Of a stretch of 64,000 nucleotides of DNA, positions 13,279 to 15,861 are shown piece by piece (within the stretch, counting starts at the first letter, position 1; every line of letters begins with the position of its first letter). A program made the translations under genes and the position numbers. This stretch comes from Chloroflexota bacterium. GTDB lineage: Bacteria; Chloroflexota; Limnocylindria; Limnocylindrales; CSP1-4. The DNA lies in contig JAZJZX010000002.1 of assembly GCA_040389445.1 (NCBI GenBank), positions 256,102-320,101 of the forward strand, given 5' to 3'. Below the pieces are notes generated by a model, which was given only the letters and a program-made list of their open reading frames with translations, did not search any database and was not told the origin of the DNA.

Positions 13279-15861
13279 GTGTCCACAACCCTTGAGACCC
13301 AGATCGGCGGTCGAACACTGACCCTCGAGACGGGCAAGCTCGCTCGCCTCGCCGGCGGCGCGGTCACCATCCGCTACGGCGACACCATGGTGCTCGGCAC
13401 CGCCAACCGCTCCGACCCGCGGCCGGGCCTCGATTTCTTCCCGCTGACGGTTGAATTCGAAGAGCGAATGTACGCCGCGGGCAAGATTCCCGGCGGTTTC
13501 ATCAAGCGCGAGGCGCGGGCGTCCGAGGCCGCGACGCTCGCCGCCCGCCTGACCGACCGGCCGATCCGCCCCCTCTTCCCCGAGGGCTACAAGGACGACA
13601 TCCAGCTCGTGATCACCGTCCTCTCGACCGATCAGGAGAACGAGCCTGACGTCATCGGAACCGTGGCCGCGTCGGCGGCGCTGACCATCAGCGAGATTCC
13701 GTTCAACGGCCCAGTGGGCGCGGTGCGCATCGGTCGGATCGACGGTGCGTTCGTGGTCAACCCGACCTTCAGCCAGCTGGCCGACTCGGAGCTCGACCTC
13801 ATCGTGTCAGGCACCCGTGACGCGATCATGATGGTCGAGGCCGGTGCCAAGTTGCTTCCCGAGGACGTCATGGCCGAGGCCATCCTCTTCGGGCACAAGG
13901 CGCTCCAGCCCCTCATCGACATCCAGGAGGAGTTGCAGAAGCTCGTCGGCAAGGCCAAGAGCACGCCGTTCCTTGAAGCCGGCACGGCGTCCGTGCTCGA
14001 GTTCGGAAGAGCCGTCGAGGCGGGCGAGGAATTCGTCGTCGTCGACGTCGAGACCACCGGCACCGACCCGAAGATGGCTGATCTCGTGGAGATCGCCGCG
14101 GTCAAGGTCAAGGGCGGCAAGATCACCGATCGGTGGTCCACGCTCGTGAACCCCGGCCGTTCCATCGTCGGCAACCAGATGCACGGCATCAAGGACGCGG
14201 ACATCAAGAAGGCGCCGAGCCCCTCGGAAGCCGCGAAGCAGGCCATCAAGTTCATCGGCAAATCCAAGGTCGTCGGCCACTCGGTCGGCTTTGACCTCGG
14301 TTTCCTCGAGGCGGCCCTCGCCGACGGGACGCATTTTGGGCCCGGCAGTTACCTCGACACGCTGACCATCGCTCGTGAGGGTTACCCGGACCTCGAGAAC
14401 TACAAGCTCGAGACCCTGTCACGCTTCTTCGGCATCGAGCTGGCCCAGGCGCACCGGGCAGGCCCCGATGCCGAGGCCACCGCGAACCTCCTGATCTGGT
14501 TCGGCAACGACCTCCCTGCTCGTCTCAAGGCGCTTCGCGAGGGGATCGCCGCCTCGATCCGCGCGACCCGCGGCGACGGCGACAGCAAGGCGATCGCGGA
14601 AGCCGCGCGCCGCGAGGCCCGCGTCAGCAAGAGCCTGTTCAGCCTGGTCAACAAGAAGGTCGCCCGCCAGATGGCCCTCGACGAGGGAATCCGGATGGAC
14701 GGTCGTGGCCTGACCGAACTGCGCCAGATCTCGGTTGACGTCGGCGTCCTGCCCCGAGCCCATGGTTCCGGCCTGTTCACCCGTGGTGAGACCCAGGTCC
14801 TCACGGTGGCGACCCTCGGGTCGTCCTCGGATGTCCAGCGGATCGACACGATCAGCCCGAAGACCGAGAAGAAATACATCCACCACTACAACTTCCCGCC
14901 CTACTCGACGGGTGAGAACAAGCCGATGCGTGGCCCCAGCCGGCGCGACATCGGGCACGGCAACCTGGCTGAGCGGGCGCTCATCCCGGTCCTCCCGACC
15001 CATGAGGACTTCCCGTACGTGATCCGGCTCGTGTCGGAGTGCCTGTCCTCCAATGGCTCGACGTCGATGGCCTCGACCTGCGGCTCGACCCTCGCCCTGA
15101 TGGACGCCGGTGTGCCGATCTCGGCCCCGGTCGCCGGTGCGGCGATGGGCCTCATCAGCGAGCCGGACGGCCGGTTCGTGGTCCTGACCGACATCCTCGG
15201 CAAGGAGGACTCGGTGGGTGACATGGACTTCAAGGTGACCGGGACGCGGGACGGCATCACCGCCCTGCAGATGGACATCAAGGTCCAGGGCATCAACGAG
15301 GCCATCATTCGCGGCGGCCTCAAGCAGGCCCTCGCGGCTCGTCTCGAGATCCTCGACAAGATGACCTCGGTCATGCCCGAAGCTCGTGGCCAGATGAGCG
15401 ACTTCGCGCCGCGCATCACCACGATCAAGATCAACCCGGAGAAGATCCGCGAGATCATCGGCAAGGGCGGATCGATGATCCGCAAGATCCAGGAAGAGAC
15501 CCAGACCGAGATCAACGTCGAGGACGACGGCACCGTGGAGATCGCCGCCGTGAGCGGCGAGAACTCGCGCAAGGCGATCCAGTGGATCGAAAGCCTCACC
15601 CGTGAGGTCGAAGTCGGCGCCCTGTACCTCGGCAAGGTCACCCGGATCATGGGCTTCGGTGCCTTCGTGGAGATCCTGCCCGGCAAGGAAGGCCTCGTTC
15701 GCATCGGCGAACTCGCCGACTACCACGTGCCGACCGTCGAGGACGTCGTGAGCGTCGGGGACGAGGTCATGGTCGTCGTGATCGAAGTCGATCGCCAGGG
15801 GCGGGTCAACCTGTCCCGCAAGGCGGCGATGCAGCGTCACCTGGCCAAGGATCCCGCCTGA
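13279..15861 (+). CDS. pnp: polyribonucleotide nucleotidyltransferase (PNPase) with a complete DEDDh/DnaQ-like 3-prime-5-prime exonuclease domain inserted between the two RNase PH domains
   Basis: RNase PH1 (aa 1-230), RNase PH2 ([36 protein letters not shown]...), KH and S1 domains all present. Residues about 250-410 carry Exo I [9 protein letters not shown], Exo II [11 protein letters not shown] and Exo III [13 protein letters not shown]. Total 860 aa against a typical 700-740. Confidence 0.9.
   Translation: [860 protein letters not shown]

Follow-up and report, generated by a model that had tools for sequence, protein, structure and literature searches.

Polynucleotide phosphorylase (PNPase) is among the most studied and most conserved enzymes of RNA decay, and to our knowledge its five-domain plan has been regarded as the same throughout, from bacteria to the mitochondria of humans. 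Its alpha-helical domain is thought to gate the access of substrates and products. In Caulobacter, the degradosome recruits RNase D alongside PNPase, and the authors of that work drew the parallel with Rrp6 (PMC4245959). Here we describe a pnp gene of Chloroflexota, class Candidatus Limnocylindria, found in a stretch of 64,000 nucleotides (contig JAZJZX010000002.1, positions 256,102 to 320,101; hereafter the window). In contrast to the canonical PNPases of E. coli (3CDI/3GCM), S. aureus (5YJJ) and C. crescentus (4AIM), its product carries a DEDDh (DnaQ-like) 3'-5' exonuclease domain of 155 amino acids (aa) that splits the helical domain; no such insert was found in the solved PNPases or in the insert-less representatives compared. 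We consider it quite probable that this protein is the orthologous PNPase of Limnocylindria, into which a DEDDh domain of the DnaQ/DinG/PolC type was inserted once, and that it is most likely a bifunctional 3'-5' exonuclease.

The pnp gene (13279-15861, plus strand, as defined by translation, Pfam and NCBIfam) encodes 860 aa. As the original prediction stated, it is a single unbroken frame: it starts with a GTG codon, an AGGAGG ribosome-binding site lies 11-16 nt upstream of this codon, and neither a stop nor a frameshift interrupts 13279-15861. The protein is identical to GenBank MES2208841.1, from a 538-kb contig. Pfam recognizes two RNase_PH domains (E=8e-53) and two RNase_PH_C domains, plus RNase_T, KH and S1, while the PNPase equivalog model of NCBIfam, TIGR03591, matches in two stretches, one on each side of the insert, and its score of 939 bits exceeds the cut-off of 525. 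The protein also has the domain order by which a PNPase is recognized, with KH and S1 after a tandem pair of RNase PH modules.

The first RNase PH module (RNase_PH and RNase_PH_C) covers aa 5-208 (13291-13902; all features of the gene are on the plus strand), Pfam placing its end near aa 208 rather than near aa 230 as had been proposed. It is followed by the N-terminal part of the split helical domain (aa 209-250, 13903-14028), which the alignment matches to the first helix of the canonical enzymes and for which AlphaFold2 predicts helices at 210-223 and 237-247. The inserted DEDDh domain occupies aa 251-407 (14029-14499) and leads into the C-terminal portion of the helical domain (aa 408-470, 14500-14688), delimited by the AlphaFold2 model and by a weak match of aa 444-476 to the helical-domain family PF03726; the match spans model positions 48-80 of 81 and scores 17 bits, below the cut-off of 24.6. 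Helices are thus predicted on either side of the insert, and on the C-terminal side the helix that bears Exo III runs on as one long helix (394-429) before two further helices (436-447 and 451-469). The second, catalytic RNase PH module (aa 471-700, 14689-15378) was placed by Pfam and by alignment to solved PNPases; the KH domain (aa 714-771, 15418-15591; PF00013, E=4e-11) and the S1 domain (aa 777-848, 15607-15822; PF00575, E=9e-18) complete the protein. Both of these are normal by Pfam, as is the rpsO gene upstream (12853-13161, PF00312), in agreement with what had been noted from the DNA.

Comparison with S. aureus PNPase 5yjj gave a measure of the insertion. Residues 5-220 of the window PNPase correspond to residues 20-235 of 5yjj and residues 453-851 to residues 313-709, so that 232 aa stand where 5yjj has a helical domain of 77 aa. 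The net gain of 155 aa, close to the 150 or so first estimated, is the size of one DEDDh domain. About 30 aa of the helical domain remain ahead of the insert and about 45-60 aa behind it. The helical domain appears to be split by the insert, remodelled and retained rather than replaced: the proposal of an exonuclease fold standing in place of the helical linker was right about a full exonuclease domain between the two RNase PH modules, but the linker itself appears to have been kept.

The phosphorolytic site of the second RNase PH module appears complete. Its phosphate site (S594-T595-S596) and its metal-binding and catalytic residues D644 (15208-15210), D650 (15226-15228) and K652 (15232-15234) line up with those of solved PNPases and are conserved in 233/233 cluster representatives of the family. 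We take their roles to be those of the E. coli PNPase equivalents, D486, D492 and K494 for the catalytic residues and S437-439 for the phosphate site.

The insert itself is matched by PF00929 (RNase_T) over aa 253-405, from the first to the last position of the model (1-164 of 164), at a score of 94.2 bits (cut-off 24; E=1.6e-26). It contains Exo I (VVVDVETTG, 14035-14061) with D256 (14044-14046) and E258 (14050-14052), Exo II (GHSVGFD) with D339 (14293-14295), and Exo III (HRAGPD) with H392 (14452-14454) and D397 (14467-14469). The original prediction had located these motifs, had found all DEDDh catalytic residues in place and had expected a PF00929 match within aa 245-415; each of these points holds, and the pentad is moreover conserved in 232-233 of the 233 cluster representatives, down to about 50% identity of the insert. 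The insert has the RNase H-like alpha/beta fold of DnaQ. In the AlphaFold2 model this DnaQ fold is predicted with confidence, joined to the helical domain through the continuous helix; a model of the insert on its own, built from a single sequence, reached a predicted local distance difference test score of 42 and was not used.

We also looked at the relatives of the insert. Its best domain-level matches in NCBIfam are the PRK07883 DEDD exonuclease, DinG (NF005981) and PolC. The exonuclease segment alone accounts for the matches to NF005981 (125 bits against a cut-off of 789) and to PolC (118 bits against 873), so that the likeness to DnaQ-DinG and PolC, as judged by these profiles, is one of domain and does not extend to full-length membership of either family. 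In the PDB, the best matches are the PolC exonuclease 2p1j (3.5e-21), PolC 9qpc and DinG 8zef. Of the 10 closest relatives outside PNPase that we examined, at 37-41% identity, 8 are N-terminal domains of DnaQ-DinG helicases of about 940-1,020 aa, several of them from other Chloroflexota (Promineifilaceae, Ardenticatenaceae, Anaerolineales), 1 is a PolC and 1 a stand-alone protein. The listed NCBIfam matches include no family model for RNase T or Orn, and RNase T 2f96 gives a partial PDB match with E=1.2e-5. By sequence similarity the insert belongs to the DnaQ/PolC/DinG branch, with RNase T and Orn clearly more distant; the first assignment to a DnaQ/RNase T type was therefore correct for the DnaQ side of the DEDDh family and not for the RNase T/Orn side. 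Considering this branch, an RNA specificity of the insert is not to be assumed. The PolC exonuclease is itself an internal insertion, located in the PHP domain, which indicates that this type of DEDDh domain tolerates nesting in another enzyme.

The same insert junctions recur in about 233 separate protein clusters at 90% identity. The best 120 matches to the window PNPase, and the best 120 to a relative 69% identical to it, all combine PF00929 with the PNPase domains; these proteins, 858-871 aa long, are encoded on contigs of up to 2.8 Mb in assemblies of JGI, ENA, NCBI and Logan. A scan of GTDB (one genome per species, an alignment of the insert only, and clade-specific motifs) found the insert in 28 species genomes, with 51-91% identity, flanked in order by the first RNase PH module and by the second module, KH and S1 in 28/28; 52 weaker DEDDh matches (identity of 41% or less) were found in the same scan, none of them near a PNPase. 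Carriers that bear a name are Candidatus Limnocylindrales, Candidatus Limnocylindrus sp., or metagenome-assembled genomes (MAGs) left at "Chloroflexota/Chloroflexia", and their lineage is Candidatus Limnocylindria. Whether relatives share the insertion had been raised at the outset: it is shared across the clade and is not specific to one genome.

Three loci or clusters in this set call for comment. A locus labelled "Patescibacteria group bacterium" (L023, DATNFQ010000235.1) carries a fused pnp of the Limnocylindria type, with a core 86-90% identical to that of the window and rpsO upstream; it is probably mis-binned or mislabelled. The 90%-identity cluster of the window PNPase also lists members of 333-368 aa named "aspartate-semialdehyde dehydrogenase" by JGI, a name that fits the gene downstream of pnp, and these may be odd gene calls on short contigs or an artefact of clustering. 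In a long-read MAG (MFD00392.bin.2.297; L025:4000-4700), the DEDDh segment of the orthologous pnp is interrupted by two frameshifts some 80 nt from each other, while every motif survives across the frames; probably these are homopolymer indel errors rather than decay.

Purifying selection acts on the insert, and its divergence goes along with that of the PNPase core, which indicates, from these sequence comparisons, a single insertion in the ancestor of the sampled Limnocylindria members. For the two parts of the helical domain, the ratio of nonsynonymous to synonymous substitution rates (dN/dS) is 0.55 (aa 209-250) and 0.45 (aa 408-470), where the ranking of regions is robust and the absolute values are rough, as dS is probably underestimated in a genome of 67% GC.

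A HMMER pass over 1.84 billion representatives at 50% identity gave a wider view, of which the best 150, ranked by similarity to the window PNPase, were inspected. Within these 150, collinearity across the insert was limited to a single full-length representative (P0121, 69% identity) and to fragments from its family, and the nearest insert-less PNPase (P0126) is 58% identical. No independent DEDDh insertion in another PNPase was found among these best 150, a ranking that leaves distant lineages outside its scope. Other long PNPases among them owe their length to extra S1 or KH repeats, to expansions of helical repeats or to low-complexity segments: tandem helical repeats (IKIEDAxxR...) add about 160 aa to P0153, P0200 combines three KH domains with a low-complexity insertion of Ala/Ser/Gly, and P0132 and P0136 have three S1 domains each. 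In these proteins the variation falls on the same helical domain or on the C terminus. The PNPase helical domain appears to be tolerant of changes in length.

The gene order around pnp is nusA, infB, a DHH/DHHA1 gene, truB, ribF, rpsO and pnp, followed by asd, RNase J and ftsK. The rpsO gene, encoding ribosomal protein S15 (12853-13161, plus strand; PF00312, E=5e-34), is the canonical upstream partner of pnp, and it lies directly upstream of the fused pnp in 27/27 related loci for which upstream DNA was available. No second pnp was found in the window. The housekeeping operon, rpsO upstream and the lack of a second pnp in the window together argue for the orthologous pnp and not an accessory paralogue. 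The DHH/DHHA1 gene of the nusA-pnp operon (9939-10961, plus strand) has NrnA, a bifunctional oligoribonuclease/PAP phosphatase, as its best NCBIfam match, and this match is weak (82 bits against a cut-off of 350).

As both active sites are intact, a bifunctional exonuclease is the reading that we favor. The second RNase PH module would carry out phosphorolysis with release of nucleoside diphosphates (NDPs), and the DEDDh site would remove nucleotides by hydrolysis, in a Mg2+-dependent manner, with release of nucleoside monophosphates. If the usual PNPase trimer forms, each ring would hold three phosphorolytic and three hydrolytic sites. The DEDDh site would then handle 3' ends that PNPase processes poorly or reversibly, candidates being ends met at limiting phosphate or high NDP, short tails beside structure, and leftover oligonucleotides. 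By analogy, the fusion would achieve through a covalent link what Rrp6 brings to the eukaryotic exosome and what recruited RNase D brings to the Caulobacter degradosome. The nearest relatives of the insert in the DinG family support an activity on RNA: S. aureus DinG degrades both single-stranded DNA (ssDNA) and single-stranded RNA (ssRNA) in the 3'-5' direction (PMC3270479), and Listeria DinG is a 3'-5' exoribonuclease acting on unprocessed rRNA, whose activity is abolished by mutation of the Exo I residues D10 and E12, the equivalents of D256 and E258 (PMC12774634).

Several observations weigh against this reading. Listeria DinG favors DNA in vitro (PMC12774634) and B. subtilis DinG requires Mn2+ for cutting linear ssRNA (PMC12525004); given the DNA preference of the nearest characterized relatives, RNA is not a guaranteed substrate of the insert. 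The insert also changes about 1.9 times faster than the PNPase core, and the presence of an NrnA-like DHH/DHHA1 gene in the same operon makes a role of the DEDDh domain as a nanoRNase less necessary.

The DNA preference of Listeria DinG and the need of B. subtilis DinG for Mn2+ make a serious rival of the view that the DEDDh domain works mainly on DNA or RNA:DNA hybrids, in 3' trimming of ssDNA, removal of R-loops or repair, with the PNPase ring, KH and S1 serving as a binding platform and not for bulk RNA decay. On the contrary, the host protein is a housekeeping enzyme of RNA decay, encoded in an rpsO-pnp operon and with its RNA-binding KH and S1 domains intact, and degradation of ssRNA, as well as action on rRNA in vivo, is known for DEDDh domains of the DinG type; the sugar specificity of a DEDDh domain, moreover, is not legible from sequence. 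Taken together, we regard a primary role on DNA as rather unlikely, though it is the best of the alternatives.

A built-in oligoribonuclease, which would hydrolyze the 2-5-nt end products left unfinished by PNPase where they are released, as Orn and REXO2 do, we rate slightly lower again. Enzymes of the Orn type are dimers with a dedicated 5'-phosphate cap. In sequence, PolC, DinG and epsilon are far nearer to the insert than Orn or RNase T are, as seen from the listed family matches and the partial hit to RNase T described above. The NrnA-like gene of the operon argues in the same direction, even if its own match to NrnA falls well below the cut-off.

A catalytically silent DEDDh domain with a structural, regulatory or RNA-binding role, such as a lid over the entrance for NDP and inorganic phosphate (Pi), is improbable, considering that the near-invariance of its five catalytic residues would be unexpected in a non-catalytic scaffold.

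The chance that the architecture is an artefact is negligible, be it an assembly chimera, two genes wrongly called as one, or an intein-like or otherwise mobile segment removed after translation: in its favor are the general plausibility of such errors in MAG data and the frameshifts of L025, which resemble typical long-read indel errors, while against it stand identical junctions in hundreds of assemblies made independently of one another, among them long-read contigs of 1-2.8 Mb, a recurrence that we used in place of a coverage test for the window assembly. The insert has a GC content of 0.64-0.65 and its flanks one of 0.66-0.69, with no break in composition, and together with the independent recurrence this rules out a chimera or mis-assembly. 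A mis-called gene is ruled out by the one open reading frame with junctions that recur across assemblies. An intein or other mobile element is ruled out as well, since the Pfam and NCBIfam matches of the window PNPase include no intein, Hint or homing-endonuclease domain, the insert has diverged together with its host protein, and the flanking helices are remodelled, so that excision would not regenerate a canonical PNPase.

Returning to the bifunctional enzyme, it may be extended, tentatively, to an exosome-like machine. In such a machine, the RNA 3' end captured by KH and S1 would be passed between the phosphorolytic sites and the hydrolytic ones, the latter standing on the helical domain that gates Pi and NDP, and the outcome would be a phosphate-independent and irreversible decay of RNA, possibly with trimming of R-loops or ssDNA. 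We consider this extension possible, with the balance somewhat on the other side.

The rpsO-pnp leader (13162-13278, plus strand; minimum free energy -55.8 kcal/mol, z=-2.0) contains a GC-rich hairpin and an anti-Shine-Dalgarno hairpin. In the latter, UCCUCC (13249-13254) and GGAGGA (13263-13268), separated by 8 nt, form a predicted pairing that involves the pnp Shine-Dalgarno sequence; it is kept in 11/12 aligned clade members, with few compensatory changes. By analogy with the E. coli pnp leader, this predicted hairpin may serve translational control or autoregulation of pnp. The GC-rich hairpin (GAUCCCGGG...CCGGGGUC, about 13176-13199) stands just downstream of the rpsO stop, at a position conserved across the clade and with some compensatory pairs. 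No T-tract follows it and the consensus scan for terminators did not call it; it may mark a place of RNase III cleavage or other processing, or act as a terminator of a non-canonical kind. The consensus scan for promoters and terminators around pnp gave nothing informative.

Further downstream, the second gene after pnp encodes a beta-CASP ribonuclease of the RNase J1 type (17845-19530, plus strand, 675 bits), followed by ftsK, so that two major RNA-decay enzymes, PNPase and the RNase J1-type enzyme, are clustered within 5 kb. Spot checks of the long open reading frames of the window revealed neither an RNB-type nuclease nor a further DEDD-type nuclease. Elsewhere in the window, a ResIII-type helicase (1,023 aa) adjoins an N6/N4 DNA methylase (878 aa) at 50897-57381 on the plus strand, a pair that looks like a type III-like restriction-modification system, and a GAF-PAS-PAS-EAL signalling protein of 893 aa is encoded at 35294-37975 on the minus strand. 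Five long open reading frames had no Pfam match (30636-32324, 33375-35087, 41407-42702, 58673-59953 and 61941-63038).

The fusion joins two well-understood domains. The original prediction knew of no described PNPase with such an architecture, and we likewise found no description of a PNPase with an embedded DEDD exonuclease in the searchable full-text literature, a scope that does not extend to subscription-only papers or InterPro. Machine annotation labels the public sequences of the family either PNPase or "DNA polymerase III epsilon subunit family exonuclease"; the architecture thus appears to be present in databases and uncharacterized in the literature. It means that an entire class of bacteria, abundant in soil and freshwater, keeps a second exonuclease, of different chemistry, inside PNPase and under selection, and that the PNPase helical domain is an insertion-tolerant site, which is useful for protein engineering. 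If the DEDDh site is active, the current annotation conceals a bifunctional enzyme, one that would parallel, in a natural and covalent form, the pairing of the exosome with Rrp6 and of PNPase with RNase D in the degradosome, and that would be a tractable single-protein system in which to study how phosphorolytic and hydrolytic degradation of 3' ends are coordinated. If the exosome-like machine exists, the pairing of a PH ring with a DEDD nuclease would have evolved in bacteria independently of eukaryotes, would provide oligotrophic bacteria with an RNA decay that is phosphate-independent and irreversible, and would offer in one polypeptide a way of asking why cells pair phosphorolytic with hydrolytic exonucleases.

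Among known proteins with a related nuclease domain, the DnaQ-DinG enzymes of S. aureus, B. subtilis and Listeria (PDB 8ZEF/9II8) carry the DEDDh domain at the N terminus of a superfamily 2 helicase, whereas here it is internal, within a phosphorolytic RNase ring protein and without a helicase. In PolC, the DNA polymerase III of Gram-positive bacteria, the domain sits in the PHP domain and serves proofreading, with no link to RNA decay, while the host of the Limnocylindria domain is PNPase. RNase T, Orn and REXO2 are stand-alone dimers dedicated to RNA, and they are more distant from the insert than PolC, DinG and epsilon. The closest parallel in function is with the exosome and Rrp6, and with PNPase and RNase D of Caulobacter, where, as presumably here, a ring of the RNase PH type is paired with a DEDD hydrolytic 3'-5' exonuclease; the PH subunits of the exosome are also structural neighbors of the core of the window PNPase. 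In those systems, however, the pairing is non-covalent and the partner is a DEDDy enzyme of the RNase D/Rrp6 type, while in Limnocylindria it is covalent and the partner is DEDDh. Moreover, the ring of the eukaryotic exosome is catalytically inert, whereas the presumed ring of the Limnocylindria PNPase, judging from its conserved residues, keeps its phosphorolytic site. The comparison with exosome and degradosome is thus best taken as one of analogy, and not of homology of the fusion.

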